Assembly: GCA_014379965.1 (NCBI GenBank)
Contig: JACMKU010000062.1
Coordinates: forward strand, 19,878-83,877
DNA: 64,000 bases
Direction: 5' to 3'
From: Chitinophagaceae bacterium
Lineage (GTDB): Bacteria; Bacteroidota; Bacteroidia; Chitinophagales; Chitinophagaceae
The notes under the pieces were generated by a model. That model saw only the letters and a program-made list of their open reading frames with translations. It was not told where the DNA came from and made no database searches. A program made the translations under genes and the position numbers. Positions 3,991 to 49,752 of the stretch are shown here, piece by piece. The stretch's first letter is position 1, and the number at the start of each line of letters is the position of its first letter.

Positions 3991-4024
3991 AGGTAGGAGA
4001 TTAGGCGAGAGTCTGTATTCTTTA

Positions 4025-5472: not shown

Positions 5473-5491
5473 TTTAACGCCCTCCTTTATA

Positions 5492-12218: not shown

Positions 12219-12659
12219 ATGAGTAATGACAACCAATTCGACCTCCTTCAATCAATACTTAGCCTTGTCAATACAGATGACTCGGAAATAAAGGAATTTA
12301 TTGAGCGACAGGTAAGGGAACAAAAAAAGATTGAAAAACCAAAGGAGATTTCTAACGAAATCATCCGGAGACTGCGGATACAAAATAAGAAGCTATTGGA
12401 ATTGGTAGACTCATTGAAGGATAGACTTAAGTATGAGAATAGCGATAAGAATCAGATTCGTGATAAGTTGACCGACCTGGAAAATTTGAACAAATCCCTG
12501 GCCCAGGCGCTAGGCAGTTGTGAGGCCTGCTGGGGAGATAACCCGGATTGCGACCACTGTTCAGGACAAGGATTACCCGGATGGAAGAATGTTAACAGGA
12601 GGATGTTTTACTTGTATGTCCTGCCGGCACTCGAAAAGTTACTTACTCGAAAATACTAG
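12219..12659 (+). CDS. Coiled-coil protein with a C-terminal CxxC-x7-CxxC zinc-ribbon-like motif
   Basis: 146 aa with a long heptad-like Lys/Glu-rich helix, then CEACWGDNPDCDHCSGQG. It is the first plus-strand gene before the eCIS structural genes. No family recognised. Confidence 0.55.
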   Translation: MSNDNQFDLLQSILSLVNTDDSEIKEFIERQVREQKKIEKPKEISNEIIRRLRIQNKKLLELVDSLKDRLKYENSDKNQIRDKLTDLENLNKSLAQALGSCEACWGDNPDCDHCSGQGLPGWKNVNRRMFYLYVLPALEKLLTRKY

Positions 12660-12773
12660 ACCACTGTGCGATAGAGGGATCGATTCCCGTACAAGGTAAA
12701 GAGCCAAGGTTCCCATTTAGTAGTACACAGCCAACCGGTTTATGGTGGGTTTTTCATAATTCAATTAGATTCA

Positions 12774-13379
12774 ATGATTGGGCAGGCTATTTTATTGCTT
12801 CGAAACGAGTTGCAATCTTATATTAAGAACCAGGATGCTTCTGTAAACGTCGTCATCGATAACATCGGTCTGCTCGAGACATCGAACGCCGATGGTCTCA
12901 CTAACAACGTGGTGATAACGGTTGTGAATATCGAGGAGGAAAGTACATTGAAGAACCAACCAGCACTCAGACGTCCCTCTTCGAATGTGGCTACTTATGT
13001 TAACCCTCCTGTTTGCCTCAACTTGTATGTGCTTTTCACTTGCAACTATTCAGGTCCGGATTACATTTTTGCATTGAAGCGCCTTGCGTACATCATTCAA
13101 TTTCTCCAAAGCAAAAATTCTTTTTCCTCATCCAGCTCGGTGGTCGGGGGTGGCCTGGACCTCGATAGCGAGGACACCTTAAATCTAAGATTCACGCTTG
13201 AATTATACACGCTAACGTTTGAGCAAATTAACCACCTCTGGGGATCACTGGGAGGAAGACAGATGCCCTTCGCCATGTACAAACTGAGGCTGGTAGCAAT
13301 CACTGAACGCGCCGTCTTGCGTGAAGTACCACTTATCGAAGAAATCGAAACTAATACCAGGGAATTATCAGCCATGTAG
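12774..13379 (+). CDS. DUF4255 (Pvc16/Afp16-like) tail terminator/cap protein
   Basis: 201 aa. The N-terminus MIGQAILLLRNELQSYI and the VVNIEEESTLKN segment match my recollection of the DUF4255 family. Its position at the head of an eCIS operon fits. Confidence 0.7.
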   Translation: MIGQAILLLRNELQSYIKNQDASVNVVIDNIGLLETSNADGLTNNVVITVVNIEEESTLKNQPALRRPSSNVATYVNPPVCLNLYVLFTCNYSGPDYIFALKRLAYIIQFLQSKNSFSSSSSVVGGGLDLDSEDTLNLRFTLELYTLTFEQINHLWGSLGGRQMPFAMYKLRLVAITERAVLREVPLIEEIETNTRELSAM

Positions 13380-13382
13380 CTT

Positions 13383-14714
13383 ATGCCGGTCATCTACAAA
13401 ATATTGTTCGAAGTAAAGCTGATGCATGAATTTTACTTTACCACAAAAGATGGCAATACGATATTTGAGAAAGCTACCCAGGCGGAGCGATTGGTTTTCC
13501 TGAAGGGGAAATATCAAAAGGGATCACCTTCGGTGGCTAACGACCTCGAATTCGATTTCCCCGAGTCGCTAAAGGCCGCTTATAGCAGCTACTGCCTGAA
13601 AATTCTCCCCTCATTTTCTGGCTTCAAGGTGGCGATCAAGGTTAATAAGAAGATACTCGCCGATGAAACGATAGCATACCAGCCGTTTGTTCCTCTGCCA
13701 GGTAATCTGGCGATAACGGTATTGATAACGAAAAAGAATGGCGACGTTGACAGCTACTCAAATTCCAGGATCAATACCTCGTTGCCAGCCTTGTATTATT
13801 TTTCAAACGACAAAGTGATCTCCGGCAACACCTTTCCATTCCTTACAAATGCAATATCGGAATTTAATTCAAACTACACTTATGAGCATGGAGAGCTCGT
13901 TGCGTTTGGGAATAATGATATACGCGGCTATTTCCAGAACTCAGCGGGCGATCAGTGGCAGGTATTTACGGGCGCAGGATTTGCCAATGAGAACGATCGC
14001 ATCTTGCTTCCCACTAAGTTTAATTATTCCTTCCCTGCAGAGAGCAATGTGAAGGATGTTGAGTTTATTTTGAAATCCCCAGGTGGCGGCGCTGTCAAAT
14101 CTATAAGGGCAAATGGCACCGACAGAATGGAAAAGATTCAGCTTGACTTCTCGGATAAAAAGGATTTGTTGTCACTTCCTGCTTCATCCCGGCCAACCGA
14201 CCGATTATTCACCCTTGAAGTTAATGGCGACAATTACATGAGGACGCATTTCATTTTTTTCAGCGATGTGCTTTACAATAGGGCAGTATGGGGAGTAACA
14301 AGCTTTGTTCTCAATCCCGCCAATCCAGACTTCAAGCTTTTTGCATCCGATGGTTACCTGGTAACTCGGAAAAGATTAAGTGGCGACGAAGATCCCCCGC
14401 TGTTTGAGATCCCAATAAAGTCAAGGTTTGCTTTCTGGCGGTATGCACATCAAAGGGGAGACCAGATCCTAATCAGTCTGGATCTCGCTGGTTTTCTGGT
14501 TGAGGAGGAAGTTGATCCCGGCGTTACAGTGAAGAGGCTGATAAGCGTTCGGCCGCGGGCGTTGTCAAGTGTTTATTTCAAGGTGCAGAATGAAAGCGGC
14601 ACAGACAGTAAATATTTGCCGAATCCAGTGAGTTATTCGATCTCGAGAGACAAGGCAGGCAGACCTTGTTTCGATATTATGGTACCCGAATCGGATTTGT
14701 TCCAGGTGATTTAA
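13383..14714 (+). CDS. Hypothetical eCIS-associated protein
   Basis: 443-aa ORF starting 3 nt after the DUF4255 stop and preceding the sheath gene. No recognisable motif. Confidence 0.55.
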   Translation: MPVIYKILFEVKLMHEFYFTTKDGNTIFEKATQAERLVFLKGKYQKGSPSVANDLEFDFPESLKAAYSSYCLKILPSFSGFKVAIKVNKKILADETIAYQPFVPLPGNLAITVLITKKNGDVDSYSNSRINTSLPALYYFSNDKVISGNTFPFLTNAISEFNSNYTYEHGELVAFGNNDIRGYFQNSAGDQWQVFTGAGFANENDRILLPTKFNYSFPAESNVKDVEFILKSPGGGAVKSIRANGTDRMEKIQLDFSDKKDLLSLPASSRPTDRLFTLEVNGDNYMRTHFIFFSDVLYNRAVWGVTSFVLNPANPDFKLFASDGYLVTRKRLSGDEDPPLFEIPIKSRFAFWRYAHQRGDQILISLDLAGFLVEEEVDPGVTVKRLISVRPRALSSVYFKVQNESGTDSKYLPNPVSYSISRDKAGRPCFDIMVPESDLFQVI

Positions 14715-14769
14715 GGCTAATGATTTTAAAAAAATAGACATCCAAATTAAAACTTAAAAAATACATCGT

Positions 14770-16179
14770 ATGGCAGAATACAAAACCCCGGGAGTATATA
14801 TTGAGGAAATTCCCAAACTACCCCCATCAATTGCTTCCGTTGAAACCGCTATACCTGCTTTCATTGGTTATACGGAGAAAGCCCACCTGCGCGAACCCGA
14901 TGATCTTCGAAATGTCCCGAGAAGGATCAGTTCAATGTTGGAGTATGAGACGCTGTTTGGTTTTGCCGACCCAGAGAAAGGAATCGAGGTGATTTTCGAT
15001 AATTCTGGCCCGCGACTCGACGTAAAAGCCAGGGTGAATCCTGAACTCAGGTCAAAATATCTGATGTACTATTCCATGCAGATGTTCTTTATAAATGGTG
15101 GTGGTCCATGTTGGATAGTTTCCGTGGGCGATTATCCTACTACAGGAGGCCTCATCATGGATGCAGATCTGAAAAGGGGATTGGCGGAAGTAGAAAAGAT
15201 CAACGAAGTAACTCTGCTGCTCTTCCCCGATGCAATCAACCTGGATAATGGATTCAACTATTATTCGGTTTACGACGAAGCTATCGATCAGGCTCGTAAA
15301 CTCCAGGACAGATTTGTTATCATGGATGTGCACCATAATCCGGAGAACGGGACAGATTGGAAAGCAGACACAGATAATTTACGAAATGTCCTGTCAGGTA
15401 CAACCGATGACCTTAAATATGCGGCGGTTTATTTCCCAAGGATATTTACGGGGATAGATTTCTATGCACCGCTTGAAGACCAGGTGAAGATTTTAGGAAA
15501 AAGCATAGCCCTGCCGGAGACGATGTCCGAACTAAAGAGCACCAGCAACGCAAACTACTTCATGGCGAAGGCGGCTATTTCAAATATGGAGATGCTATTG
15601 CCGGCCTCCTCCTCCCTGGCTGGTATCTACGCACTCGTCGATGCTACACGGGGTGTTTGGAAGGCTCCCGCAAACGTGAATATCGACAATGCAATAAGGC
15701 CGGAGTTCCTCATCACACATGAACAACAAAAGGATCTTAATGTCGATGCTATGGCAGGCAAGTCCATCAACGTCATTCGGAGTTTTACGGGTCGCGGCCC
15801 GGCCATCGTTTGGGGAGCGCGCACACTTGCTGGCAATGATAACGAGTGGCGCTATATCCCCGTCCGCAGGTTCTTCAACATGGTAGAGGAAAGTACTAAG
15901 AACGCAACTGAGCAATTCGTTTTTGAACCGAATGACATCAACACCTGGGTAAGAGTGAAGTCTATGATTGCAAATTACCTTACCCAGCAATGGAAGGCAG
16001 GAGCGCTTCAAGGGGCGTCTACCAAAGAAGCATTTTTTGTTCACGTTGGGTTGGGCGAGACGATGACCTACCAGGATATTCTTGAAGGGCGTATGATCGT
16101 GGAGATCGGAATGGCAGTAGTAAGACCAGCCGAATTCATCATCCTCCGCTTCATGCATAAAATGCTGGGAGAATCCTGA
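14770..16179 (+). CDS. Contractile tail sheath protein (Afp2-4 / gp18-like)
   Basis: 469 aa. It has the hallmark N-terminus MAEYKTPGVYIEEI and a conserved C-terminal sheath domain (WKAPANVNI, VWGARTL). Confidence 0.92.
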   Translation: MAEYKTPGVYIEEIPKLPPSIASVETAIPAFIGYTEKAHLREPDDLRNVPRRISSMLEYETLFGFADPEKGIEVIFDNSGPRLDVKARVNPELRSKYLMYYSMQMFFINGGGPCWIVSVGDYPTTGGLIMDADLKRGLAEVEKINEVTLLLFPDAINLDNGFNYYSVYDEAIDQARKLQDRFVIMDVHHNPENGTDWKADTDNLRNVLSGTTDDLKYAAVYFPRIFTGIDFYAPLEDQVKILGKSIALPETMSELKSTSNANYFMAKAAISNMEMLLPASSSLAGIYALVDATRGVWKAPANVNIDNAIRPEFLITHEQQKDLNVDAMAGKSINVIRSFTGRGPAIVWGARTLAGNDNEWRYIPVRRFFNMVEESTKNATEQFVFEPNDINTWVRVKSMIANYLTQQWKAGALQGASTKEAFFVHVGLGETMTYQDILEGRMIVEIGMAVVRPAEFIILRFMHKMLGES

Positions 16180-16217
16180 TCGGTATTCTAATCTTCAACT
16201 ATTCTAAAAAATAATAT

Positions 16218-17318
16218 ATGAGCACACACAATCAGACATCAAAAGGATCGAATCCCGAACCGGTGCCGGTGCCTCCTGAGTGTAAACAGGATGATACTAA
16301 CCCAACCCAGATCGTGATCAATAAGGAACGTAATAAATATTGCCTTGAATTGTATGAGGCACGAGGAGCTACCTCTCAACAGGAAGTAAAATTTGCCGGT
16401 GAAAATGAAATTTACAATGACAGGAAATGCTTGTTTAATAATACTGAGGAGAATTACCTGAGGTACCGCAATCTGGAGATTACGATCGGTACTGAAATGT
16501 TGACGACTTCTGAAACCATTAAAGGCAACGTTGACCAACTTAAGAAATGGAATTCTGATCTGAACGCGCTCCTTAAGAAACTAAGTAAGAGTGTCAAGGA
16601 TGCAAAAGAAAAATTTAAGGATCTCAAAGACGCAGGATGCAAGTTGGAATCCAGCATTCACGATCAATGCTTTACTGCGCAATGGAAGGCGTTGACAGGA
16701 AGGGAAAGCGAGAAATGTGATGCTACCGGTGAGCCGCATCCTGCCTGTAAAACGACCGCAGAAGATATTTCTGCTATGATCTGCCGTCCGAAGGGCCTGA
16801 TCCTCGATATCGACTCCATCACGACGGCGTCTGCCGATGTGGTGGGAATCCAGATTTTCTCCAATATCGACACATTGGAACCGCTGCATAAAGAACTGGA
16901 TACATACTCGAAGGATTTTGAGAAGCATGTTGCCGAAGTAATGAAAACCAGGGAAACAGATCTCAAAAAAATGCAGGATGATCTTGTAAAGTCTGTTAAA
17001 GACATTACGAAGGCTGCTGTCGACAGGAACAGTCTTCGAGGCAACTTCGAAGGATTGTATGATGCCGTGAGCTACATGTGCTGTCCTCCGTGTGTATGTG
17101 TAGGTCCAATTGATCCTTCAGACCCCGATTGTCACGACAACAACTACAGGAATAAGCAGGGCGGAACTACGCCAGCAAAGGATTGTTACAATGATTGCCC
17201 ATCACGCCTGAAGAAATGTGAGAAAGCAATCTGCGAGATCTGCACCGATGTGAAGGTTGCTTTCTGTTGCGATACTCCACCTGTGGGCGACCCAGGAATT
17301 CGAGGATGCTGTGATTAG
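16218..17318 (+). CDS. Cysteine-rich coiled-coil protein A (unknown function)
   Basis: 366 aa with about 22 Cys by my count, 14 of them in the last ~80 residues (YMCCPPCVCVGP...CEKAICEICTDVKVAFCCDTPPVGDPGIRGCCD). The central region is Lys/Glu-rich and helical. No signal peptide or TM segment. Confidence 0.7.
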   Translation: MSTHNQTSKGSNPEPVPVPPECKQDDTNPTQIVINKERNKYCLELYEARGATSQQEVKFAGENEIYNDRKCLFNNTEENYLRYRNLEITIGTEMLTTSETIKGNVDQLKKWNSDLNALLKKLSKSVKDAKEKFKDLKDAGCKLESSIHDQCFTAQWKALTGRESEKCDATGEPHPACKTTAEDISAMICRPKGLILDIDSITTASADVVGIQIFSNIDTLEPLHKELDTYSKDFEKHVAEVMKTRETDLKKMQDDLVKSVKDITKAAVDRNSLRGNFEGLYDAVSYMCCPPCVCVGPIDPSDPDCHDNNYRNKQGGTTPAKDCYNDCPSRLKKCEKAICEICTDVKVAFCCDTPPVGDPGIRGCCD

Positions 17319-17353
17319 ACGACACCATTATTAAAATTCTTAAAAAATTTCAT

Positions 17354-18484
17354 ATGCTTACGAAACATTGTTACAAGAATATTCCAGAAAAATGGAATGA
17401 GCACACCGACGATGAAACCAGGCGGCGGATCATCGATTGTTGCGGTGTACCAGATCCCAACGACCCGACCGGGGGTGACTGCTGCTACCGGGATTGGAAC
17501 CTTGAACTAAAAAACGTAAATCAGGACTATAAGGCAGCCATCGAGGAAGCAGAGTTGAGAAAGAGACAGCTCGTCTTTATTACCGACAGGCGAGATCGTT
17601 ATAATACCTGGGTAATTGAATTGAACAAGGCGGAAGAGAAGGCTAGATATATCTGCCAGCAGTTGGATGTCATTGCCACTCAGACACGTAAGATCTGGTA
17701 CAATAGCTGCAAAGCCGTTAAGGCCATCGAGATACTCTACTGCATGATCACCGATTTTTATTTCCAGGTAGACGACCTCCGGAAAAAGTATGACAACCTC
17801 ACTGCATGCGTTTCTAATAATCACGATCCTGCCATCGGTAAAGGAACAGGTATTCTAAAGTATGCTGACGATTATCTCGCGAAGTTGGAGATAGTTATTA
17901 AAACCCGCGACGACCTTGTTAAGCCTGTGTTAGATGCCATTCGTCTTGCTAATCTCATCCGGAATAGCATCTCTACAAAGAAATGCCCCGCTCCCAAGGA
18001 TGACAAAGGCAAAGGCTATGATCCATGCGAGGATGATGAACTCTGCCCGGATTATTGCGTAGAAGGCGGCGAATACTATGGGTTGAAGGCTGTAATCTGT
18101 GCATGGTATCGTGAATTCAATTGTGATCTTAAGTGTGAGCCTACTATCGATCCTAAATTACCTAAGGATCAGTGGAAGCTGAAATACAAGGAACGTGAAG
18201 ATGCCAGGATCAAACGCGAGGAAGAAAAAAAGAAATGCGACGAGAAACAGGATCCGCCTCCAGTGGATTGCGTTTGCGAACTGCGTCCGTCATTTTATTT
18301 CCCAGTTTGTAATGATGTATACAAGATGCAAATCGAAAGATGGTTGTACAACGACGAAAGCTCTATTAATACACTTCGCGAAAACCTATTGGCTAGTTTA
18401 AAGAAGAAAGAGGCGCTCCAGGCATGTAAGGATAGTCTTGCTAAAGCGGTGAAGGAAGTGGATCCAAAGGATAGATGCAAATAG
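17354..18484 (+). CDS. Cysteine-rich coiled-coil protein B (unknown function)
   Basis: 376 aa with about 22 Cys by my count. The N-terminus has DCCGVPDPNDPTGGDCCY, which mirrors the C-terminal CC-x12-CC of protein A. No signal peptide or TM segment. Confidence 0.7.
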   Translation: MLTKHCYKNIPEKWNEHTDDETRRRIIDCCGVPDPNDPTGGDCCYRDWNLELKNVNQDYKAAIEEAELRKRQLVFITDRRDRYNTWVIELNKAEEKARYICQQLDVIATQTRKIWYNSCKAVKAIEILYCMITDFYFQVDDLRKKYDNLTACVSNNHDPAIGKGTGILKYADDYLAKLEIVIKTRDDLVKPVLDAIRLANLIRNSISTKKCPAPKDDKGKGYDPCEDDELCPDYCVEGGEYYGLKAVICAWYREFNCDLKCEPTIDPKLPKDQWKLKYKEREDARIKREEEKKKCDEKQDPPPVDCVCELRPSFYFPVCNDVYKMQIERWLYNDESSINTLRENLLASLKKKEALQACKDSLAKAVKEVDPKDRCK

Positions 18485-18520
18485 CTCGTAACTCTTTAAT
18501 CATAATTAAAAACAGTCTTT

Positions 18521-18979
18521 ATGGCACAGAACGATGACTTTAAATATCCGCTTCCGAAATTTCACTTTGAACTGGAATGGGGTGGCGTCCGCATTGGCTT
18601 CACCGAGGTTAGCGGGCTGGATTTTGAAACGGAGGTGATTGAATATCGCGAGGGGCATCTTCGCACCTATAACAAAACGAAGCAGCCTGGACTCACAAAG
18701 TTCTCAGACGTTACACTTAAGCGAGGAATCGTGCTCGACAATTTTGAGTATTATGAGCAATGGGTAAAGACCGCTATGTTCCAGGAAAAGAAGGAGCAAT
18801 ATCGCCGTACCGTTACAATCAAGCTGCTTAACGAAGAACATAATACGATCATCACTTGGACTCTTGCAAAGGCCTGGCCTTCCAAGATCCAGTCGACAGA
18901 TCTCAAGGCAGATGCGAATGAAGTAGCAATAGAGACCATGACCCTGGTACATGAAGGGCTGGTAATGGCAAAACCTTAG
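18521..18979 (+). CDS. Tail tube protein (Afp1-like, T4 gp19 / PF06841-type)
   Basis: 152 aa with PLPKFHFELEWGGVRIGFTEVSGLDFETEVIEYREG, the classic conserved phage-tail tube motif. Confidence 0.9.
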   Translation: MAQNDDFKYPLPKFHFELEWGGVRIGFTEVSGLDFETEVIEYREGHLRTYNKTKQPGLTKFSDVTLKRGIVLDNFEYYEQWVKTAMFQEKKEQYRRTVTIKLLNEEHNTIITWTLAKAWPSKIQSTDLKADANEVAIETMTLVHEGLVMAKP

Positions 18980-19001
18980 CGAAATAGTATAATGGCGTTC
19001 T

Positions 19002-19520
19002 ATGGCAGAAGAAGTGACTATCCCGTATCAGGCGGTAAATTTTCATTACCTGGTTGAGTTCAACCACAAGGATAGCCCTATAGATGATATCGGTTTCCAA
19101 TCAGTGACCGGTTTTGATTCCACGTTGGAAACCGAACCTTTGAAGGAAGGAGGGGAGAACAGGTATGTACATGCGCTGCCAATGAGAAGGAATTATTCTA
19201 AGCTCGTCCTGAAGAGAGGAGTATGGAAGCCAGGCAAATCAAAACTCACCGACTGGTTGAAAAGAAACTTCGATGATGAATTAGAATCGGAGGTCATTGA
19301 ACCCGTTGAGACAGTTGTGATCACTTTACTCAACGAGGAACACCAGCCACTGATGCGATGGAGGGTAAACAATGTATGGCCTACAAGCTGGAAGATCGGC
19401 GAACTCAATGCCGAACAGGGCGGCGTACTAATAGAAACCCTCGAGTTGAATTATAATCGACTTGTATTCGAAGAAGTCCCGGAGAGTCCAGCAAGTGAGA
19501 TAAATAGCAGAATAAGTTAA
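19002..19520 (+). CDS. Second tail tube paralogue (Afp5-like)
   Basis: 172 aa with AVNFHYLVEF and FQSVTGFDSTLETEPLKEGGENRYVHALP. It has the same fold signature as the preceding gene. Confidence 0.85.
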   Translation: MAEEVTIPYQAVNFHYLVEFNHKDSPIDDIGFQSVTGFDSTLETEPLKEGGENRYVHALPMRRNYSKLVLKRGVWKPGKSKLTDWLKRNFDDELESEVIEPVETVVITLLNEEHQPLMRWRVNNVWPTSWKIGELNAEQGGVLIETLELNYNRLVFEEVPESPASEINSRIS

Positions 19521-19530
19521 CCCTTGATCT

Positions 19531-19707
19531 ATGGCATTAGAAGTAAGAGAACTAATTATCAGGGCCACCGTGGTACAGGAGGGGATCGGCACAGGGATTA
19601 CTAATCCTTCGCCTGGAACGAATAACGATATATCCAACGAAGAGGAATTAATTACAACCTGCGTGGAAAAAATTCTTGAAATCTTAAAATCAAAGGATGG
19701 CAGGTAA
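19531..19707 (+). CDS. Small conserved eCIS protein (DUF5908-like), missing from the ORF track
   Basis: My translation gives a 58-aa ORF: MALEVRELIIRATVVQEGIGTGITNPSPGTNNDISNEEELITTCVEKILEILKSKDGR. The N-terminus resembles the DUF5908 pattern (M..E.KEL.I...V) I recall from Bacteroidota eCIS loci. It starts 10 nt after the tube gene and overlaps the next gene by 11 nt. Confidence 0.55.
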   Translation: MALEVRELIIRATVVQEGIGTGITNPSPGTNNDISNEEELITTCVEKILEILKSKDGR

Positions 19708-20410
19708 AGACAAAAAAAGAGGCGAACTGACCAAACTGGTAATTCATTCCTACCCTGAGAAAAATTTTCAGGAGGAGGACAAGACCTTGCGTTTTACTAC
19801 GCCGATCAATCCGGAAACTTTCAGCAAGACAAGTTTCATCGAACTCAATACAACAAGGGCACATGGGCAACCGGGTGCAGATCCCAAATACAAATCCACA
19901 AAACCCGAGGAGCTGAAGATTGAATTTGTACTGGATGGTACCAATTCTCTGGAAGGATATGTGAAGAAATATAAGGAGATGGAGGTGTCAGAGCAGATCA
20001 AGGCCTTCACTGATTGCGTGTACCAGTACAAAAGTGATCAACACCGTCCTCGCTTCCTAATAGTGAGATGGGGCTCGGACCTGAATTTCCCCTGTGTGCT
20101 TTCACATCTCGACGTTAGTTATTCTTTATTTAAATCCAACGGCAACCCGCTTCGGGCCAAAGTCAGCGCAACGTTCGTAAAGTATGAGACACCCGAAGCG
20201 ATTGCAGCGGCAAAGAGACCTGCCTCGCCGGATCTAACCCACGTACGGACAAGTAAACAAGGAGACAGGCTCGACCTGATGACTCATAAAATATATAAGG
20301 ACCCTGCTTTCTTCCTGCAAGTTGCCAGGGCGAATAACCTGAGTTCGGTGAGAAACCTTCCACTTGGGCGCGATGTCTATTTTCCACCAATCAATAAAAA
20401 CGAACCCTGA
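19697..20410 (+). CDS. LysM-like domain protein (Afp7-like tube initiator / baseplate hub component)
   Basis: 237 aa. The N-terminal tube-like region is followed by a C-terminal LysM-like segment (GDRLDLMTHKIYKDPAFFLQVARANNLSSVRNLPLGRDVYFP). Its position before the spike gene fits. Confidence 0.7.
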   Translation: MAGKDKKRGELTKLVIHSYPEKNFQEEDKTLRFTTPINPETFSKTSFIELNTTRAHGQPGADPKYKSTKPEELKIEFVLDGTNSLEGYVKKYKEMEVSEQIKAFTDCVYQYKSDQHRPRFLIVRWGSDLNFPCVLSHLDVSYSLFKSNGNPLRAKVSATFVKYETPEAIAAAKRPASPDLTHVRTSKQGDRLDLMTHKIYKDPAFFLQVARANNLSSVRNLPLGRDVYFPPINKNEP

Positions 20411-22176
20411 TGGAAGAGCTGCTGATACCGAACCCCTCAAAGTGTGACGTTGCTACCTATAATATGTTAGTTGAGGGCGAGGAAGTGCCGATTACATTCC
20501 AATTACTTTCCTTATCAATACACAAGGAGGCTAACCGGGTACCTAGTGCAAAAATTGTATTTCGGGACGGCGATGCATCGGAACAAAAATTCGAGATCAG
20601 CGAAAATGAACTCTTCGTTCCTGGAAAGAAAATTCAAATCAATATCGGTCGAGATGGCACCAACAAGCAGGCATTTAAAGGTATCATCACTCACCATTCG
20701 GTAAAGGTTAAGCAAAACGGGCATAGCCAACTCTGCATCGAATGTCAGGATGAATCGGTGAAGATGACCATCGGCAGGCATAGCCATTATTTTGAAAAAA
20801 TGAAGGACAGTAAGGTGATAGATGAGCTCATCACCAAGTATAGTCTCGATGCGGATCCCGAGCCAACGGGATTGGAGCATAAAGAATTGGTTCAACACCA
20901 TATTTCTGACTGGGACTTTATGTTGCTGCGTGCAGAGGCTAACGGTATGCTGGTGTTTACCGACGACGGTAAGATCACAGTTGCGAAGCCGAAAATCAAA
21001 GGTGAAGTACTACAGGTCAACTACGGCTCGTCTATCCTTGAATTCGAAGCCGAGATGGATGCTCGATCGCAGTTCAAAAGCGTAAATGCATGCTCATGGG
21101 ACTACGCAAACCAGGCTTTATTCAAGGCAGATACCGGATCGGCAACGTTTACTGAGCTGGGTAATATAAGTGGGAGCGATATCTCTGAGAAGATCAGTCC
21201 TGATAAGTATGAAATGCACCATAGCGGACTAAAGCTGGTTCAGGAACTGCAAGATTGGGTTGATGGGATTATGGTGCGTAGCAGACTATCCAAGATAAGG
21301 GGCCGGGTAAAATGCATTGGGTTTAGCGCCATCAAACCAGGCGACACGCTAAAGATGACCGGGGTCGGCGCGCGATTCAACGGTAAGGCATATGTGACCG
21401 GTGTGCGGCAGGAGATGGGTAACGGCATTTGGGAGACGCATATTCAATTTGGACTCGACCCAGCGAGGTATGCTTTTCATCACAACGACGTTAACGATGC
21501 TACCTCTGCAGGACTAGTGGGTGCGATACACGGACTTCAAATCGGCAAGGTAGAAAAATTGGAAAATGATCCCGATGGCCAGGATCGTATCCAGGTAAAA
21601 ATTCCCGTAATCGATAATACCGCACAGGGAATATGGACAAGGGTTGCCAGCCTGGATGCCGGTGCTGACCGCGGTGCCTTTTTTCGCCCGGAAATCGGTG
21701 ATGAGGTTATCGTAGGATTCATCAACGACGATCCGCGAGATGCAGTGCTGCTAGGAATGCTCCACAGTAGCAACAAGCCTGCACCCATTACGGCAAAAGA
21801 TGTGAACCATGAAAAAGGATTCACTACGCGGAGCAAAATGCACATCAGCTTCAACGATGACACCAAAACCATAAAGATCGATACACCTGCGGGTAACCAT
21901 GTGTTGCTGGATGAAAAAGAAAAGAAGATCGAGGTGATCGACCAGAACAATAATAAGTTGGTAATGGAACCAGCTGGAATTACTATGGAAAGTCCAGCCA
22001 AGATAGATATCAAGGCAGGCACGACCCTTTCCATCACCGCAGGGACTTCGCTTTCAATTGGAGCGCCATCTATTTCAGTGAAAGCAGATGCTGATTTGGG
22101 ACTCGAGGGCTCAATCGTAAAGCTTAAAGCCTCCGGAATGGCACAGATCAATGGTTCCATGGTAACGATAAATTAA
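20410..22176 (+). CDS. VgrG-like spike / baseplate hub (Afp8; gpD + gp5 OB-fold + beta-helix)
   Basis: 588 aa with WTRVASLDAGADRGAFFRPEIGDEVIVGFINDDPRDAVLLGMLHS (gp5/Vgr OB-fold signature). The C-terminus has repetitive beta-helix-like segments. The start overlaps the preceding stop by 1 nt (TGATG). Confidence 0.9.
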   Translation: MEELLIPNPSKCDVATYNMLVEGEEVPITFQLLSLSIHKEANRVPSAKIVFRDGDASEQKFEISENELFVPGKKIQINIGRDGTNKQAFKGIITHHSVKVKQNGHSQLCIECQDESVKMTIGRHSHYFEKMKDSKVIDELITKYSLDADPEPTGLEHKELVQHHISDWDFMLLRAEANGMLVFTDDGKITVAKPKIKGEVLQVNYGSSILEFEAEMDARSQFKSVNACSWDYANQALFKADTGSATFTELGNISGSDISEKISPDKYEMHHSGLKLVQELQDWVDGIMVRSRLSKIRGRVKCIGFSAIKPGDTLKMTGVGARFNGKAYVTGVRQEMGNGIWETHIQFGLDPARYAFHHNDVNDATSAGLVGAIHGLQIGKVEKLENDPDGQDRIQVKIPVIDNTAQGIWTRVASLDAGADRGAFFRPEIGDEVIVGFINDDPRDAVLLGMLHSSNKPAPITAKDVNHEKGFTTRSKMHISFNDDTKTIKIDTPAGNHVLLDEKEKKIEVIDQNNNKLVMEPAGITMESPAKIDIKAGTTLSITAGTSLSIGAPSISVKADADLGLEGSIVKLKASGMAQINGSMVTIN

Positions 22177-22186
22177 AAAGACAAAA

Positions 22187-22477
22187 ATGCCTTCAGCAGC
22201 TCGGCTTACGGATTTTCATACTTGTCCCATGTTCAATGGGCCATCGCCGCATGTTGGCGGTCCAGTATCGGGCCCCGGCGCCTCGACGGTAATGATCGGG
22301 AGTTTGCCAGCGGCACGGGTAGGTGACATGTTGGTTTGTGCTGGCCCGCCGGATGTGATAGTAAAAGGATCAGGTACTGTATTTATCGCCGGCATGCCTG
22401 CTGCGAGGCAAGGCGATAGTACGGCGCACGGTGGAATTATTGTAGCCGGCCTGCCCACGGTACAAATAGGAGGATAA
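22187..22477 (+). CDS. PAAR domain spike-tip protein (Afp10-like)
   Basis: 96 aa with two PAAR motifs (GSLPAARVGD, IAGMPAARQGD) plus a Cys/His zinc-site context (FHTCPM). Confidence 0.9.
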   Translation: MPSAARLTDFHTCPMFNGPSPHVGGPVSGPGASTVMIGSLPAARVGDMLVCAGPPDVIVKGSGTVFIAGMPAARQGDSTAHGGIIVAGLPTVQIGG

Positions 22478-22482
22478 AAATC

Positions 22483-22908
22483 ATGGAACAAACTTTCAAT
22501 TCCTTTTTAGGTACGGGCTGGTCATTTCCTCCGGCATTCAACGCGAGTACTGGTGTGGTGGAAATGGTGAGCGAGGTGGAGGACATCAATCAAAGCCTCG
22601 ACATATTGCTTTCTACAAGTATAGGAGAACGCGTGATGCAGCCGGATTATGGCTGCAATTTGAACGATTATATGTTTGAAGGTCTGGGTAGCGATCTTAT
22701 TGGAATCATCAAGCACCACGTGGAGAATTCAATATTATATTATGAACCAAGAATCATTGCAGAGAAAGTAACTGTTACTACCGCGGACTCAACGGACCTG
22801 CTAGAAGGTAAGTTCGTGATCACTGTAGAATATCTTATACCGAAGACGAACTCCAGGTTCAACTATGTATATGATTACTACCTGAATGAGGCCACAGCCA
22901 GAATATAA
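22483..22908 (+). CDS. GPW/gp25 family baseplate wedge protein (Afp9-like)
   Basis: 141 aa with FLGTGWSFPP and LLSTSIGERVMQPDYGCNL, typical of the gp25 lysozyme-like fold family. Confidence 0.85.
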   Translation: MEQTFNSFLGTGWSFPPAFNASTGVVEMVSEVEDINQSLDILLSTSIGERVMQPDYGCNLNDYMFEGLGSDLIGIIKHHVENSILYYEPRIIAEKVTVTTADSTDLLEGKFVITVEYLIPKTNSRFNYVYDYYLNEATARI

Positions 22909-27496: not shown

Positions 27497-27507
27497 AATA
27501 AGGCGGA

Positions 27508-34161: not shown

Positions 34162-34167
34162 TAGAGT

Positions 34168-35712: not shown

Positions 35713-35751
35713 ATGAAAAGACTATGATCTTTAGCGAATGAAAAAATAAGA

Positions 35752-46024: not shown

Positions 46025-47416
46025 ATGTCATATAGATCCCGAGTTTATCGACAACGAAATGCAAATACACATGAAGATGCGCCAAAGGAAGGTTTCTTTC
46101 GCAAGGGACAGGATGTGAATCCCGATCAGAAGAAAAGCAGCTTCTTCCAACCGAAGTTATCGGTGAATGAGCCTGGCGACAGCTATGAGAAGGAGGCGGA
46201 TGCCGTCGCTAGCGCTGTCGTAGATAAATCTGCTGGTGCACCTGCGGTGCAGCAAAAAAAGATCAGCAGCATTCAGCGTCTTTCTTCTTCCGCGGAGGAC
46301 GAGAAAATGAGCACCAGCGATGCCCGCATGGCAAAAGATAAAGAGATCCAGGAAAAACCTCTTCAGCGCACGCACGCTGAAGGCGATAAGGAAGAGAAGG
46401 AAGAGATTCAGAAAAAGGAAATGCCTTCGGTAGAAGAGGAGAAGGAAAAGAAGCCTGTACAGACAAAACCGCAGTCCAGCGCTCCCTCTGTGGGTAGTAA
46501 GCTTTCGTCGAACATTGAAAGCAGCGCCGGCAAAGGGAAGGCCTTACCCAAAAACACGTTGCATGAAATGAATGCTTCATTCGGAACAGATTTCAGCGGA
46601 GTTAGAATCCATATGGACAGTGATGCCATTGCGATGAATTCAGAATTGCAGGCCCAGGCCTTTACTCATGGCCAGGATATATACTTCAACTCCGGAAAGT
46701 ATGCGCCGGAGAATAGTCAAGGCAAATTCCTGCTCGCACATGAACTCACCCATGTAGTTCAGCAAAACGATGGCCTGCAGGAAACGGACATCCAACGAAA
46801 AGTGATAGGAAAGAATGTCACAACAAGTCGAGCGATGCTCGAAACATTAGGAATGACCCGGGAAGAAGTTATCGCGGCGCTTGAGGCAGCTGATGCTGAC
46901 GCGATAGTCCTTGCACGGAGTGCGGAAGACATGCTCATCGCTCAGCTTGCACTTGCAGTGGCTGGTGATACGGTAGATGCAAATGCGGAGCAGATATTAA
47001 ATGAAGAACTTGGGTTGTCCTATAACAACCCTACACATCGTGGTCTGATACGTCAGCAGATCCGGAGATTTAAGACGGTACGCGAGACGCTTCAAAGTGG
47101 TTACCTGCGGTATATAGCATTGGGAATTGGAAAAGTACAGTTGATCGGGTGCCAGGTAGGCGAATGTGGACCGAATCATGCATTCAGTTGTCCTGGCAAT
47201 CGCCTCGTCGTCCTTTGCCAGGCTTACTGGGATAATACGGCTGCTGAAGACCGCAGCTCTACCATCATGCACGAGCCTTTTCATATTTGGTTTCATATGG
47301 CCAGTCATGATACTGGAGCGTTGCGTAGAGCCGATGCAAGCTGTTTTGAGTCCTTTGCTCTAAGGGCATCCGGCAAAAGTGCTCTCAGGTCATGTGTGGA
47401 TCATACAGGAGGATAA
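46025..47416 (+). CDS. Second DUF4157-domain cargo protein with a C-terminal HExxH-containing domain
   Basis: 463 aa. The DUF4157 core is MNASFGTDFSGVRIHMDSDAIAMNSELQAQAFTHGQDIYFNSG...LLAHELTHVVQQ. A second HExxH (IMHEPFHIW, 47269-47283) lies in the C-terminal ~190 aa together with several Cys. Confidence 0.8.
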   Translation: MSYRSRVYRQRNANTHEDAPKEGFFRKGQDVNPDQKKSSFFQPKLSVNEPGDSYEKEADAVASAVVDKSAGAPAVQQKKISSIQRLSSSAEDEKMSTSDARMAKDKEIQEKPLQRTHAEGDKEEKEEIQKKEMPSVEEEKEKKPVQTKPQSSAPSVGSKLSSNIESSAGKGKALPKNTLHEMNASFGTDFSGVRIHMDSDAIAMNSELQAQAFTHGQDIYFNSGKYAPENSQGKFLLAHELTHVVQQNDGLQETDIQRKVIGKNVTTSRAMLETLGMTREEVIAALEAADADAIVLARSAEDMLIAQLALAVAGDTVDANAEQILNEELGLSYNNPTHRGLIRQQIRRFKTVRETLQSGYLRYIALGIGKVQLIGCQVGECGPNHAFSCPGNRLVVLCQAYWDNTAAEDRSSTIMHEPFHIWFHMASHDTGALRRADASCFESFALRASGKSALRSCVDHTGG

Positions 47417-47419
47417 TGT

Positions 47420-49225
47420 ATGTGGCTTGGAAAAATAATATCATTCTTTCTGAGAAAACGTAAAGTGAAACTCTTAGCAGCTCCGAGCCCAACTATTGCC
47501 GGATTATTGGAAATTAAGACGACGGGTGAAGAGAAAAATAATGAAGACAAAGGGACGATCATAAAAATGCTGACTATGCAACACGAAGACACAAATCATT
47601 CAAAGGAATTTACCTACCTGGAAGAACTGATCCGGTATCGTCTGAATCGGTATTTCCCTACTCCTCGTGAACACCCGGATTATGGAAAGCATGACAGACC
47701 CCCAACGCTTCCCGAACCATCGGAATGGCGTCTGCCTTTCTTTGACTTCGTGATGAATACAAAGCCACGGCTCACCGATAATGAGATCGTTCTCGCTTTA
47801 ATTGGTCTGGCCCCCCATATACAGCCGGATCTGTTTGACCGGGCAATAGAAAGCAAGTTGCCGAAAGACAATGAATTTTACACAGATTTCCCAAGGTTGG
47901 GCGGAGTGCGTGGGAAGAACTGCCGTTTCTTTCTACCGACCGGAGAGACTGCGTTATTCCTGATAGCGGGTGACAATTACAAGAGGAGGTTAATGGTGCA
48001 GCAGTATTTTGCGGCGGAGCATCAATTCTGGCAAAAGAAGATTTTATGGTTGGAGGATATGCAGAATGGAGAACCAGCGATGCATGGCCGCCTTATTATC
48101 TCGCCAGATTATGTCGATCTAATGACTTTCGGCAAACACAGGTCTCCACAATTTAGCATCAGTTTTCCTGCCAAGAAAATTGCTCCGGAAGAAGAAAAGG
48201 ATATGAAAGTGGAGGAGGAGGAACTAAAGAAAATAAAATGTAAAAAGGAAGAAGAAACCCATGATGATAAACCAAGGAGGGGAGTGGCTTCATTTGATCA
48301 GTTAGTCATTCCAAAAGAATTGAAGGACCAAATAGATGAAATCAAGATCTGGTTGAAATATAAGGATCAGTTGATGGACAAAATGGACATGTTAAAGAAA
48401 GGGTACAGGACACTATTCTATGGGCCGCCGGGCACGGGTAAGACATTCACGGCGAAGATTCTTGGAAATGAGCTTGATAAGGAAGTGTATAAGATCGATC
48501 TGTCAATGATCGTGTCCAAGTATATTGGGGAGACGGAGAAAAACCTCGAGCTTTTGTTTGCGCAGGCAGAAGGGAAGGGGTGGATTCTATTTTTTGACGA
48601 AGCCGATGCGCTATTCGGTAAACGAACCAATGTTCGCGATGCGCATGACAAGTATGCCAACCAGGAGGTTTCCTATTTGCTGCAACGAATTGAAGACTAT
48701 AATGGATTGGTGATACTGGCAACGAATATGAAGAATAACATAGACGATGCCTTTGTACGACGGTTCAATTCGATTCTAAGCTTCCCGTTCCCAGATGCTG
48801 GTTCGAGGGCAAAGATTTGGAGGATTTTCCTTCCGACCGGAAAATTGAACACGAAAAAGATTATTTATCGTGAGAAACCTGGAATGGACCCTTACCCGGA
48901 TAGATACCATGATATCTGCAATATTCCGGCAATGGATGTTGCAGTTGATATTCCCGAAGCAGTTAAGAAATATGAATTGAGCGGGGGTAGCATCATGAAC
49001 GTGGTGCATTATGCTGGTCTAAAGGCTATAGATAGATTTAACACTGCTATCGAGGAGAGGAAAAAGCTTTATAGAATTCCTCTAGTGGAATATAGTGATG
49101 GCCCAACTGCAATTGAGAAAGAAGACCCATGTGATCCTACACCACAGTTTATCATTTACCTATCGGACGTGCTCGACGGTATCAAGCGGGAGCTGGTCAA
49201 GGAAGGGAAGCCGTTTACGCCGTAG
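47420..49225 (+). CDS. AAA+ ATPase (Afp15-like eCIS assembly/cargo-loading ATPase)
   Basis: 601 aa with Walker A FYGPPGTGKTFTAKILG and Walker B ILFFDEADALFGKR, in a CDC48/FtsH-like AAA module. The start at 47420 is 3 nt after the previous stop. An alternative ATG at 47567 is possible. Confidence 0.88.
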   Translation: MWLGKIISFFLRKRKVKLLAAPSPTIAGLLEIKTTGEEKNNEDKGTIIKMLTMQHEDTNHSKEFTYLEELIRYRLNRYFPTPREHPDYGKHDRPPTLPEPSEWRLPFFDFVMNTKPRLTDNEIVLALIGLAPHIQPDLFDRAIESKLPKDNEFYTDFPRLGGVRGKNCRFFLPTGETALFLIAGDNYKRRLMVQQYFAAEHQFWQKKILWLEDMQNGEPAMHGRLIISPDYVDLMTFGKHRSPQFSISFPAKKIAPEEEKDMKVEEEELKKIKCKKEEETHDDKPRRGVASFDQLVIPKELKDQIDEIKIWLKYKDQLMDKMDMLKKGYRTLFYGPPGTGKTFTAKILGNELDKEVYKIDLSMIVSKYIGETEKNLELLFAQAEGKGWILFFDEADALFGKRTNVRDAHDKYANQEVSYLLQRIEDYNGLVILATNMKNNIDDAFVRRFNSILSFPFPDAGSRAKIWRIFLPTGKLNTKKIIYREKPGMDPYPDRYHDICNIPAMDVAVDIPEAVKKYELSGGSIMNVVHYAGLKAIDRFNTAIEERKKLYRIPLVEYSDGPTAIEKEDPCDPTPQFIIYLSDVLDGIKRELVKEGKPFTP

Positions 49226-49228
49226 GCG

Positions 49229-49268
49229 CGGGAATCAGGAATCAGGAATTAGGAATTGGGTATTGGGG
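49229..49268. repeat. Heptamer array (GGAATCA/GGAATTA units)
   Basis: CGGGAATCAGGAATCAGGAATTAGGAATTGGGTATTGGGG lies directly after the AAA+ ATPase stop. It belongs to the same unit family as 2234-2402. Confidence 0.8.
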
Positions 49269-49321: not shown

Positions 49322-49717
49322 ATGTCTGCCAAAAAAAATAAAGAAGTTGTTCGAAGGTTTTTTGACGAAGTGTGCAATGGAGGCCTGGATGAAAAAGTAT
49401 ATGACATATTTGCCGACAAAGTAAGCTTTAACGGTAAGCAGGGATCGCCTGAAGGGGTCATTCGCTTTCTCAAACGAATACGTATGTCTTTTGCACTTTT
49501 AAGGGTGGAGGTTAAAGAACAAATTGCAGAGCGGGATATCGTTTCTACGAGGAGGGTTTGGACAGGGACTCCCAGGAAGAGAAGCCACCCTTCTTTTGGG
49601 AAATTGATTACCTGGAATGAAATCAGTATTGTTCGGTTGGTAGATAACAAGATAGTGGAGGATTGGAAGGAGGAAAGTAAGCGCGTACGGGTAATTCGCA
49701 TTGCCAGAAAAAAATAG
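49322..49717 (+). CDS. SnoaL-like ester cyclase family protein
   Basis: 131 aa. The N-terminal KKNKEVVRRFFDEVCNGG and C-terminal ISIVRLVDNKIVEDW are typical of the NTF2-fold ester cyclase/SnoaL family. Confidence 0.65.
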   Translation: MSAKKNKEVVRRFFDEVCNGGLDEKVYDIFADKVSFNGKQGSPEGVIRFLKRIRMSFALLRVEVKEQIAERDIVSTRRVWTGTPRKRSHPSFGKLITWNEISIVRLVDNKIVEDWKEESKRVRVIRIARKK

Positions 49718-49752
49718 CAATAGTCAATAGTCAATAGACAATAGTCAAATCG
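49717..49752. repeat. Heptamer array (CAATAGT/CAATAGA units)
   Basis: GCAATAGTCAATAGTCAATAGACAATAGTCAAATCGC lies directly after the SnoaL-like gene stop. Confidence 0.8.

Follow-up and report, generated by a model that had tools for sequence, protein, structure and literature searches.

Within the contractile injection systems (CISs), subtype Ib, the group of AlgoCIS, the metamorphosis-associated contractile structures (MAC), the type VI secretion systems of subtype iv (T6SSiv) and the thylakoid-anchored CIS (tCIS), is recognised by published hallmarks comprising a single sheath gene, a short cap with an adaptor, a Cis6 plug, a PAAR gene preceding the gp25 gene, a long Cis11 and cargo with a DUF4157 domain. 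For AlgoCIS of Algoriphagus machipongonensis, the gene products have been reported, in amino acids (aa), as 16A 197, 16B 284, 2 692, 1 142, 5 147, 6 52, 7 228, 8 581, 10 96, 9 137, 11 1050, 12 933, 19 1443, 14 537, the cargo proteins Cgo1 498 and Cgo2 1228, a TPR protein 289 and 15 435 (Xu et al., 2022; PMC8894135). In AlgoCIS the tape measure determines how long the particle is and how much it holds, Alg15 is needed for cargo loading, and the disordered N-termini of the cargo, which are alike within one system, act as a loading signal. The stretch of DNA analysed here, 64,000 nucleotides (nt) from a Chitinophagaceae bacterium (GenBank assembly GCA_014379965.1, contig JACMKU010000062.1, positions 19,878 to 83,877 of the forward strand; in the following, the window), carries at positions 12219-49225 an operon which, as judged from its gene content, is a complete CIS of this subtype.

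A genome scan with the sheath protein of this operon retrieved at least 589 relatives, from which 80 loci (given L numbers below), mostly of Chitinophagaceae with some of Saprospiraceae, Cyclobacteriaceae and Sphingobacteriaceae, were kept and compared by tblastn with all proteins of the window, with measurement of the sheath-to-tube distances. The downstream halves of related loci derive from a scan of metagenomes in which the tape measure protein served as query and from look-ups of ParA homologues. Cultured carriers of the locus type include Chitinophaga arvensicola DSM 3695 (L046), C. ginsengisegetis DSM 18108 (L048), Niastella populi (L033) and Sphingobacterium daejeonense (L015). The exact sequence of the sheath protein is not on record, whereas two proteins of the window are 100% identical to the hypothetical proteins H7Y42_04095 and H7Y42_04100 of a Chitinophagaceae metagenome-assembled genome (MAG), the source of the window. 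The nearest genome locus belongs to another Chitinophagaceae MAG, with a sheath 89% identical, and loci of extracellular contractile injection systems (eCISs) have been reported in 89% of Chitinophaga genomes. The clade is thus large and catalogued, yet no member has been characterised, and three of its conserved features, a pair of cysteine-rich coiled-coil proteins, a giant Cis12 without a separate fibre gene and a ParA ATPase in the cargo cassette, go beyond the characterised CISs and are undescribed in the literature searched. A first-pass annotation, made by a model from the letters alone, had raised the possibility of an uncharacterised Bacteroidota eCIS lineage, which is correct with respect to characterisation, but the lineage is abundant and already catalogued.

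Gene order and structural core

The ORF (open reading frame) list and the gap table computed from the sequence give 22 consecutive genes, all on the plus strand, with 36,600 nt of coding sequence in a span of 37,007 nt (99%) and intergenic gaps of -23 to +114 nt. The single-strand, densely packed layout had been read in the first-pass annotation, which with about 24 genes slightly overcounted them, and the junctions quoted there are exact, with 3-nt gaps at 13379/13383 and 47416/47420, an 11-nt overlap at 19697-19707, a TGATG overlap at 20408-20412 and a 23-nt overlap at 22886-22908. The core modules it had named are all recovered by Pfam and Protein Data Bank (PDB) profile searches, the LysM tail only weakly, and hidden Markov model (HMM) searches of the ORFs find the sheath, tube, VgrG and gp25 families as well as a baseplate-J homologue (PDB All3317).

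The structural core begins with a two-part cap, formed by the short cap or terminator Cis16A (12774-13379, 201 aa; Pfam Pvc16_N, formerly DUF4255, 1.7e-32) and the adaptor Cis16B (13383-14714, 443 aa). The latter lies between cap and sheath, as in AlgoCIS, and a profile of its 39 homologues matches the solved adaptors, Anabaena All3326 over the full length (1.3e-26) and the AlgoCIS cap adaptor (5.3e-14). The reading of this 443-aa ORF as a second sheath protein was rejected, as a sheath match was not obtained and its profile is that of a cap adaptor. Sheath families are matched by one gene only in the operon, Cis2 (14770-16179, 469 aa; Pfam Phage_sheath_1C 2.2e-15), with PDB matches to the sheaths of AlgoCIS (2.8e-140), Anabaena (All3325, 8.1e-137), a Salmonella subtype Ib system (1.5e-91) and Pvc/Afp (~1e-61). 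The corresponding bit scores are 471 for AlgoCIS, 460 for tCIS, 311 for Salmonella Ib and ~210 for Afp/PVC, and the placement in subtype Ib follows this ranking rather than a tree. Cis2 aligns to Alg2 in two stretches, the best of which pairs residues 251-465 with Alg2 477-689; the shorter length, 469 aa versus 692 aa, would fit an absence of the outer domains III/IV of Alg2.

Downstream, the inner tube protein Cis1 (18521-18979, 152 aa; Pfam Phage_T4_gp19 8.5e-42) is followed by a second protein of the tube fold, Cis5 (19002-19520, 172 aa; Phage_T4_gp19 1.1e-35), by position a putative tube initiator matching Alg5. Cis6 (19531-19707, 58 aa; DUF5908 8.3e-14) corresponds to the spike plug, which in AlgoCIS is the 52-aa Alg6 (PMC8894135). 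The tube initiator Cis7 (19697-20410, 237 aa; CIS_tube 2.8e-46) shows in its C-terminal 73 aa a weak match to Phage_tail_X of the LysM clan (E 0.02), and Alg7 has the architecture of CIS_tube with a LysM-like C-terminus (PMC8894135). The VgrG-like spike Cis8 (20410-22176, 588 aa; Phage_base_V 7.6e-20, Phage_GPD 5.6e-07), the PAAR tip Cis10 (22187-22477, 96 aa; PAAR_motif 1.7e-24) and the gp25-like sheath initiator Cis9 (22483-22908, 141 aa; GPW_gp25 4.1e-22) come next, PAAR being upstream of gp25 in 51/51 related loci. The baseplate wedge protein Cis11 (22886-27496, 1536 aa), conserved in 51 loci, has its strongest PDB matches in All3317 (5.9e-134) and Alg11 (1.4e-104), followed at a distance by Pvc11 (4.9e-27) and Afp11 (2.7e-25); about 1000 aa, N-terminal and internal, lie outside the Pfam segment search and the best PDB stretch, a region that in the relatives forms the cage. 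A notably long Cis11 with a spike-cage insertion is a trait of the subtype (Chen 2019), and the length of the protein here, together with the strong homology to Alg11 and All3317, would fit such an insertion, in this locus a putative one. Behind the second wedge protein, Cis12, follow the tape measure Cis14 (34168-35712, 514 aa; CIS_TMP 5.8e-109) and, after the cargo genes, the AAA+ ATPase Cis15 (47420-49225, 601 aa; AAA 3.7e-28), by homology the putative cargo loader, the gene of which ends the cassette in all related loci.

AlgoCIS has the same order, 16A, 16B, 2, 1, 5, 6, 7, 8, 10, 9, 11, 12, 14, two cargo genes, a small gene and 15, with near-identical sizes for cap, tubes, plug, Cis7, VgrG, PAAR, gp25 and tape measure; it provides the best solved match for the sheath and strong ones for Cis11, Cis12 and the cap adaptor, and its cargo likewise consists of a disordered N-terminus followed by DUF4157. 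Among solved structures, the Anabaena PCC 7120 tCIS (Weiss et al., 2022; PMC8894136) matches Cis11, Cis12 and the cap adaptor best and the sheath nearly so; like the locus it has a two-part cap, a Cis6 plug and an extended Cis12, and it further has a Cis11 cage. The coiled-coil pair and ParA are not known from tCIS. The T6SSiv of Aureispira and Amoebophilus asiaticus share the sheath clade, Bacteroidota hosts and DUF4157 effector candidates with the locus, and have a Cis11 cage. The antifeeding prophage (Afp) and the Photorhabdus virulence cassettes (PVC), of subtype Ia, have in common with the locus the core families Afp1, 2, 5-12 and 14-16 and toxins loaded into the lumen with an AAA+ ATPase, but differ by three sheath genes, a long one-piece cap without an adaptor, gp25 before PAAR, a short Afp11, an adenovirus-like Afp13 fibre and a much lower sequence similarity (sheath ~1e-61). 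Afp/PVC, against which the first-pass annotation had measured the locus, is therefore the wrong yardstick, while AlgoCIS matches gene for gene; because the AlgoCIS order matches, the single sheath gene, PAAR before gp25, the missing Afp13 and the long Cis11, which had been listed as departures, are typical of the lineage.

Departures from AlgoCIS itself are of another kind. The locus has two cysteine-rich coiled-coil genes between sheath and tube, where AlgoCIS has none, and lacks a counterpart of the separate 1443-aa Ig-like fibre gene Alg19; Cis12 comprises 2217 aa versus 933, Cis11 1536 versus 1050 and the cap adaptor 443 versus 284; ParA occupies the position of the AlgoCIS TPR protein; and the cargo combines two nucleases and is accompanied by an immunity gene.

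Among the related loci, L018, L026, L038, L049, L052-L054, L060, L061, L063 and L069 carry a sheath homologue (54-69%) and no other detectable CIS gene within the fetched flanks of up to 10 kb per side, which on several contigs are cut short by the contig end, and these may represent split loci or orphan sheath genes. L020 (CAYMZZ010000011.1) is titled 'uncultured Citrobacter sp.', yet is a Chitinophaga-type locus almost identical to L013, and P0162, a CysB homologue, is assigned to Gemmatimonadaceae in one source and apparently differently ('Chi...') in another; both labels are probably binning errors.

Conserved features beyond the characterised systems

The two genes between sheath and tube, CysA (16218-17318) and CysB (17354-18484), are a real departure, as had been noticed at first reading, and are conserved in the clade. 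Each encodes 22 cysteines (6.0% and 5.9% of the residues, respectively), many of them invariant across homologues, and a long coiled coil, which in CysA is antiparallel and ends in a cysteine-rich C-terminal knob; a signal peptide is not recognisable by eye and a membrane helix is not predicted. Neither protein reaches a family threshold in Pfam or NCBIfam, where only sub-threshold coiled-coil matches are obtained, PHROGs returns one marginal match (E 7e-4) to an uncharacterised family, and sequence and profile searches of the PDB find no relative. The homologues in the databases (88 for CysA, 75 for CysB) are unnamed, 'hypothetical' or bear evidently spurious names such as 'gas vesicle protein', and the CysA profile retrieves 188 representative clusters among 1.84 billion proteins.

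AlphaFold2 with deep alignments predicts for CysA (predicted local distance difference test, pLDDT, 80) helices at residues 29-148 and 180-288 and for CysB (pLDDT 84) helices at 43-155, 167-206 and 322-369, so that in both models a helix of ~115-120 residues is folded back on shorter helices, with poorly ordered cysteine-rich ends. Such a helix would give a rod of ~17 nm. Foldseek searches against the PDB and viral structures return only generic coiled coils such as SMC arms and chemoreceptors. Although the predicted topology is alike, HMM cross-searches between CysA and CysB are not significant, and an origin as recent paralogues is unsupported (BLASTP E 0.011 over 45 residues, hhalign probability 33%); CysB constitutes a separate family.

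CysA is detected by tblastn in 53/80 related loci and CysB in 48/80. When loci with a sheath at least 57% identical and both the sheath and tube genes in range are considered, all 49 show a sheath-tube spacing of 1.9-2.9 kb with CysA/CysB homologues, while in eight more distant loci, including those of Brocadia, Ralstonia, Chlorobium, Draconibacterium, Ignavibacteria and Geobacter, the two genes are adjacent (32-80 nt). CysA and CysB are two undescribed families conserved in a clade centred on Chitinophagaceae. As a separate observation, L072 from a Bacteroidota MAG (sheath 53%) has a 2.6-kb sheath-tube gap and a cap-adaptor homologue without a detectable CysA/CysB match, and may harbour a very divergent pair or a different insert.

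The second feature concerns the baseplate wedge protein Cis12 (27508-34161, 2217 aa, 52 cysteines). Its closest solved relatives are All3315 (3e-128) and Alg12 (5.3e-102), Pvc12 (9.6e-20) and Afp12 (3.2e-17) being far weaker; the best of three matched stretches, the only one located, covers residues 9-494. Searches with the whole proteins give no Pfam match for either giant ORF, the ~1700-aa C-terminal extension of Cis12 has none even in a segment-wise search at E up to 1, which over the extensions of Cis11 and Cis12 and the linkers of the cargo toxin yields a weak Annexin match only, and self-BLAST reveals no internal repeats. A Cis12 of ~2200 aa aligns over its full length in L082, L083, L085, L086, L088 and L089, and in L093 and L095 a protein of 2192-2209 aa is encoded immediately ahead of the tape measure. 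In the window 6 nt separate Cis12 from the tape measure gene, and the two likewise adjoin in this order in seven related loci, with no locus showing an intervening gene. Because they recur in related loci, the giant Cis12 and the missing separate fibre gene are traits of the clade; of the very large baseplate proteins pointed out at first reading, Cis12 with ~2200 aa is indeed unusual, while the enlarged Cis11 is normal for the lineage. We infer that the Cis12 extension, possibly together with the coiled-coil pair, may take over target binding or anchoring. A fusion of Cis12 with Alg19, as which the sizes would add up, is unsupported, as solved fibre or crown chains are absent from the PDB matches of Cis12.

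The third feature is a Soj-like ParA ATPase of 254 aa (44465-45229; Pfam AAA_31 3.8e-50; PDB ParA/Soj ~1e-43) with the deviant Walker A motif KGGCGKT. Homologues at 65-76% identity were sampled in seven cases, all of which lie between eCIS_core genes and the AAA+ gene, and the cassette follows a common plan in which one or more DUF4157 cargo genes, in some cases accompanied by an immunity gene or one of the DUF6851/VCPO-like kind, precede ParA, usually followed by a DUF4157 protein of 260-460 aa and by the AAA+ gene at the operon end. The same ParA arrangement is present in L083, L085 and L002, while L086 lacks ParA. A chromosomal Soj was considered and rejected, as a ParB gene is absent beside ParA in the window and in seven related loci and the close homologues sampled are all inside CIS cassettes. 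In two cases (L017/L095 and L027/L085) the ParA locus is on one contig with a sheath-side locus encoding the coiled-coil pair; the features therefore co-occur. ParA is a conserved member of the cargo and loader cassette in this clade, and the impression at first reading of an incidental in-line gene applies only to its neighbour, the cupin gene, which looks locus-specific.

Orphan ParA/MinD-type ATPases that position cellular structures include McdA, VirC1, PpfA and MipZ. The ParA of the cassette resembles them in being small, having a deviant Walker A motif, lacking ParB and being encoded in the operon of a large machine. A ParA-type ATPase linked to a CIS was not found in the limited set of literature that could be searched; should the ParA of the cassette position the machines or hand over cargo to the loader, no partition-type ATPase would have been connected with a CIS before it.

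The cupin gene encodes a DUF4440 (NTF2-like) domain joined to a cupin (45234-46007; Pfam DUF4440 1.8e-11, Cupin_2 2.7e-05), its start being most likely at 45234, 4 nt past the ParA stop, versus an overlapping start at 45072. It matches the NCBIfam model of mandelonitrile-lyase-type cupins at 6.6e-31, below the cut-off, and has no homologue in the related loci, so that it looks like a locus-specific insertion. Four related loci have upstream of ParA a 454-aa DUF6851/VCPO_2nd gene, vanadium-chloroperoxidase-like, that is absent from the window (L093 6146-7510, L097 4625-5989, L098 4634-5998, L099 4099-5463); it directly adjoins ParA in two of the four, one small ORF lying between in the other two.

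Taken as a whole, the clade might have a distinct architecture, with the ~17-nm pair as a particle module, Cis12 replacing the fibre and ParA in positioning or hand-over, a proposal that we put forward only tentatively. In such an architecture the pair might form, for example, fibres, sheath braces or links between particles that are locked by disulfides or metal outside of the cell. CISs are being re-engineered as protein-delivery tools, with the AlgoCIS branch as one main platform, and Chitinophagaceae of soil and rhizosphere carry the locus type very commonly, yet none of them has been studied in this respect. The clade thus points to parts missing from current models: an additional coiled-coil module of two proteins, the genes of which stand among those for the structural parts of highest copy number, a Cis12 that may unite wedge and fibre functions, and a cassette ParA that could bear on how and where cargo is loaded. 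Should the accessory genes prove dispensable, the locus would be one more member of a well-catalogued family.

Cargo, immunity and mode of action

The main cargo candidate is a toxin of 2746 aa (35752-43992; Pfam eCIS_core 3.6e-29, Col-Pyo_DNase 2.3e-34, Tox-SHH 1.5e-09). A loading-type N-terminal region is followed by DUF4157 (residues 248-325), a hydrophobic block (995-1092) and an HNH DNase domain of the colicin/pyocin type (1254-1364), which also matches the NCBIfam model of the antibacterial T6SS DNase VPA1263 (6.6e-24); the second half comprises a long helical region, annexin-like repeats (~1500-2110), another hydrophobic block (2131-2188) and Tox-SHH (2618-2717). The HH..N..H and SHH catalytic motifs are intact in the sequence. 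The repeats, of ~70 aa and encoded at ~40246-42080 (residues ~1499-2110), have an annexin-like start motif ([DENS][DE][DEAGN].[ILVMA]...), although the match to Pfam Annexin is weak and below threshold (E 1.2e-3); Annexin is among the eukaryote-like domains of eCIS effectors (Geller et al., 2021). A 63-nt tandem repeat of 2.5 copies at 36239-36395 (residues ~163-215, upstream of DUF4157), within the N-terminal region of low complexity, is translated into acidic units of 21 aa, in each of which a KC.EC(E) CxxC motif occurs.

The second cargo candidate (46025-47416, 463 aa; Pfam eCIS_core 9.3e-30) also has a loading-type N-terminus. Residues 1-340 of the toxin are 30% identical to it (E 2e-29), and the region common to both comprises FFRKG ... 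KL.V.EP.D.YEKEAD, an acidic low-complexity stretch and DUF4157 with HExxH. Its C-terminus is zincin-like with weak support (Aspzincin_M35 3.6e-4, below threshold), and a DUF4157 protein of 260-460 aa is found right before the AAA+ gene also in L086, L091 and L096-L099.

In the toxins of related loci the first ~330 residues are kept and the remainder is swapped, which constitutes a polymorphic-toxin pattern; one relative encodes a DUF4157 toxin of 2828 aa followed by an Imm33-like gene. In the window, a protein of the SUKH/SMI1 immunity family (44002-44439; Pfam SMI1_KNR4 1.7e-08, above threshold, with weak matches to SUKH_5 and SUKH_6) is encoded 9 nt past the toxin stop and most likely neutralises the C-terminal Tox-SHH nuclease. 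Tox-SHH is already among the eCIS-linked toxin domains, and eCIS toxin-immunity pairs have been reported (Geller et al., 2021). The conserved delivery N-terminus, the swappable C-terminus and the downstream immunity gene are as in polymorphic toxins with SUKH proteins (Geller et al., 2021), whereas two nuclease modules in one protein of 2746 aa, each preceded by a hydrophobic block, and one recognisable immunity gene only are particular to this locus. An immunity gene would indicate that the toxin is dangerous to its producer and does not tell a bacterial from a eukaryotic target. Dual-nuclease cargo with an immunity gene adds to the case for use of some of these machines against other microbes.

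The explanation that we regard as probable is that one operon encodes a complete subtype Ib CIS with DUF4157 cargo, for which release is the favoured mode. By homology, Cis9, Cis11 and Cis12 would form a baseplate around the VgrG-PAAR spike, plugged by Cis6; Cis7 and Cis5 would start the Cis1 tube, which the single sheath protein would wrap, and the Cis16A cap with the Cis16B adaptor would close the distal end. As in AlgoCIS, both DUF4157 proteins would be recognised via their common disordered N-terminus and fed unfolded into the tube lumen by Cis15, upon which sheath contraction would drive the tube with its cargo into the target cell, where the main cargo would deliver two HNH-superfamily DNases, the SUKH protein guarding the DNA of the producer. 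From conservation and predicted shape, CysA and CysB would be clade-specific structural or assembly parts of the particle and the giant Cis12 extension would replace the separate fibre gene of AlgoCIS in target binding or anchoring, while the conserved ParA may act with the cargo and loader module, by placing the particles or by delivering cargo to Cis15.

With respect to the mode of action, we lean, on weak arguments and with modest confidence, towards release as a free extracellular particle, because hydropathy predicts no membrane helix in any structural protein, because candidates for an envelope complex are not encoded nearby and because cargo and loader are arranged as in AlgoCIS. The 'extracellular' in the first-pass label eCIS nonetheless remains an assumption, although the CIS in it is well founded, since relatives use three modes. 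A cell-anchored, contact-dependent machine of the T6SSiv type, in which the giant extensions of Cis11 and Cis12 would dock on the inner membrane and ParA would place the machines, is unlikely, though several points speak for it. The sheaths of Aureispira, a member of the Saprospiraceae, and of Amoebophilus fall into one clade with those of AlgoCIS and the cyanobacterial CIS, and in the Saprospiraceae loci L044, L058, L062 and L080 the cap adaptor is present, as are weak homologues of CysA and CysB. The Anabaena Cis12 extension is a membrane connector without a transmembrane helix (PMC8894136), a positioning ATPase suits a cell-bound machine better, and the window lacks genes for lysis or release. 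On the other hand, T6SSiv have been seen anchored in the inner membrane, in Aureispira also with a trans-envelope complex and antennae, and such parts are not assignable in the window, candidate trans-envelope genes being absent in or beside the operon and membrane-spanning segments from the structural proteins. Lumen-loaded DUF4157 cargo with an AAA+ loader is moreover the arrangement demonstrated for the released AlgoCIS, and the heavy cysteine content of the outermost parts, a weak argument, fits an oxidising, extracellular setting.

Distinctly less probable is an intracellular CIS that fires upon stress or death, as do the cytoplasmic CIS of Streptomyces and the tCIS in Anabaena ghost cells, with the nuclease serving to kill self or kin. 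It draws on the Anabaena proteins as best or second-best solved match for Cis11, Cis12, sheath and cap adaptor and on the fact that the Anabaena CIS is unreleased and fires only at lysis or ghost-cell formation (PMC8894136). The tCIS, however, has a Cis13 that carries a membrane helix at its C-terminus, and a crown of Cis19, whereas here no gene lies between Cis12 and the tape measure gene, so that both are missing; Bacteroidota have none of the thylakoids of the Anabaena host, and the immunity gene adjacent to the toxin argues that the producer should survive its own toxin. A defective prophage tail or a cargo-less R-type tailocin killing by membrane depolarisation can be given hardly any credence: the sheath, tube, gp25, baseplate-J and VgrG families are common to myophage tails, but CIS-specific parts (the Pvc16_N cap, cap adaptor, CIS_tube, the tape measure CIS_TMP, Cis12, DUF5908, eCIS_core and the AAA+ Cis15) are all present, of which the cap, Cis12, the tape measure and Cis15 are lacking in tailocins and phages, hundreds of genomes have conserved the locus type between housekeeping genes, viral contigs scanned with the AAA+ protein contain no relative, and head, portal, terminase, integrase, holin and endolysin genes are absent from the 64 kb. 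The same scan, which covered all ORFs of at least 80 aa in the window except those inside a longer opposite-strand ORF, found no genes of the T6SS membrane complex (TssJLM/TssK/ClpV) either, so that the first-pass exclusion of a prophage and of a canonical T6SS stands.

Several points weigh against the favoured explanation of a released, cargo-loaded particle. Its production, release and loading are deduced by homology throughout; relatives at similar distance use three modes, which leaves 'extracellular' as the most likely guess, and the 64-kb window contains no lysis or release genes. With 2746 aa the toxin exceeds any cargo shown to be loaded in AlgoCIS (Cgo2, 1228 aa), which makes its loading an extrapolation, and a cognate immunity gene for the internal colicin-type DNase is not recognisable. 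The roles assigned to the pair, the Cis12 extension and ParA draw on synteny and predicted shape only, and CysA and CysB could equally be chaperones or extra cargo. Scans of the operon ends for sigma-70 promoters and terminators score no better than shuffles, and the Bacteroidota-type -33/-7 promoter pattern has zero matches at the operon, the ends of which are thus left undefined by the scans.

Regulation and neighbourhood

The first gene of the operon (12219-12659) encodes a 146-aa leader protein in which a coiled coil is followed by the cysteine motif CxxC...CxxCxGxG; it stays below the family thresholds in all profile searches and is found at the same position in only 2/80 related loci (L001, L013). 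Divergent and outside the operon coordinates, a GerE/LuxR-family regulator is encoded on the minus strand (11209-11787; Pfam GerE 6.7e-18). Homologues of it adjoin six related loci, and GerE regulators adjoin 25.8% of eCIS loci (Geller et al., 2021), so that this protein, of an eCIS-associated regulator type, is a candidate regulator of the CIS. Beside it, an ORF of 718 aa (8790-10946, minus strand) is without a match in Pfam, PHROGs and PADLOC, and none of the related loci has a homologue.

The flanks of the operon carry housekeeping genes on both strands (glycosyltransferase, CorA, diaminopimelate (DAP) epimerase, DUF72, serine dehydratase, GH43 glycoside hydrolase, sodium:solute symporter), and an Rfam search of the window returns a tRNA only. 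About 2 kb downstream of the operon, a protein of 1132 aa (51210-54608, plus strand) has a SMEK domain at the N-terminus as well as a NACHT NTPase domain. With a match of the N-terminal part to 'Aga_REase-PNTD1-PNTD2' of PADLOC (2.6e-32), it is probably the product of a defence gene of the STAND (signal transduction ATPases with numerous domains) type. A 23S-rRNA-intervening-sequence or bAvd-like gene (5099-5422, minus strand) adjoins a 102-nt tandem repeat (5488-5678; 1.9 copies, 93%).

Tandem arrays of 7-nt units, such as TCCCGAT (10 copies), CTCCCGT (12) and CCGCCTC (9), occupy many intergenic regions, including the one just past the last operon gene; they are located at 2255-2399, 4024-4286, 5746-5776, 6670-6803, 6931-6967, 11143-11204, 49231-49256, 49713-49748 and 58949-58973, and resemble the heptameric short tandemly repeated repetitive (STRR) sequences of cyanobacteria.

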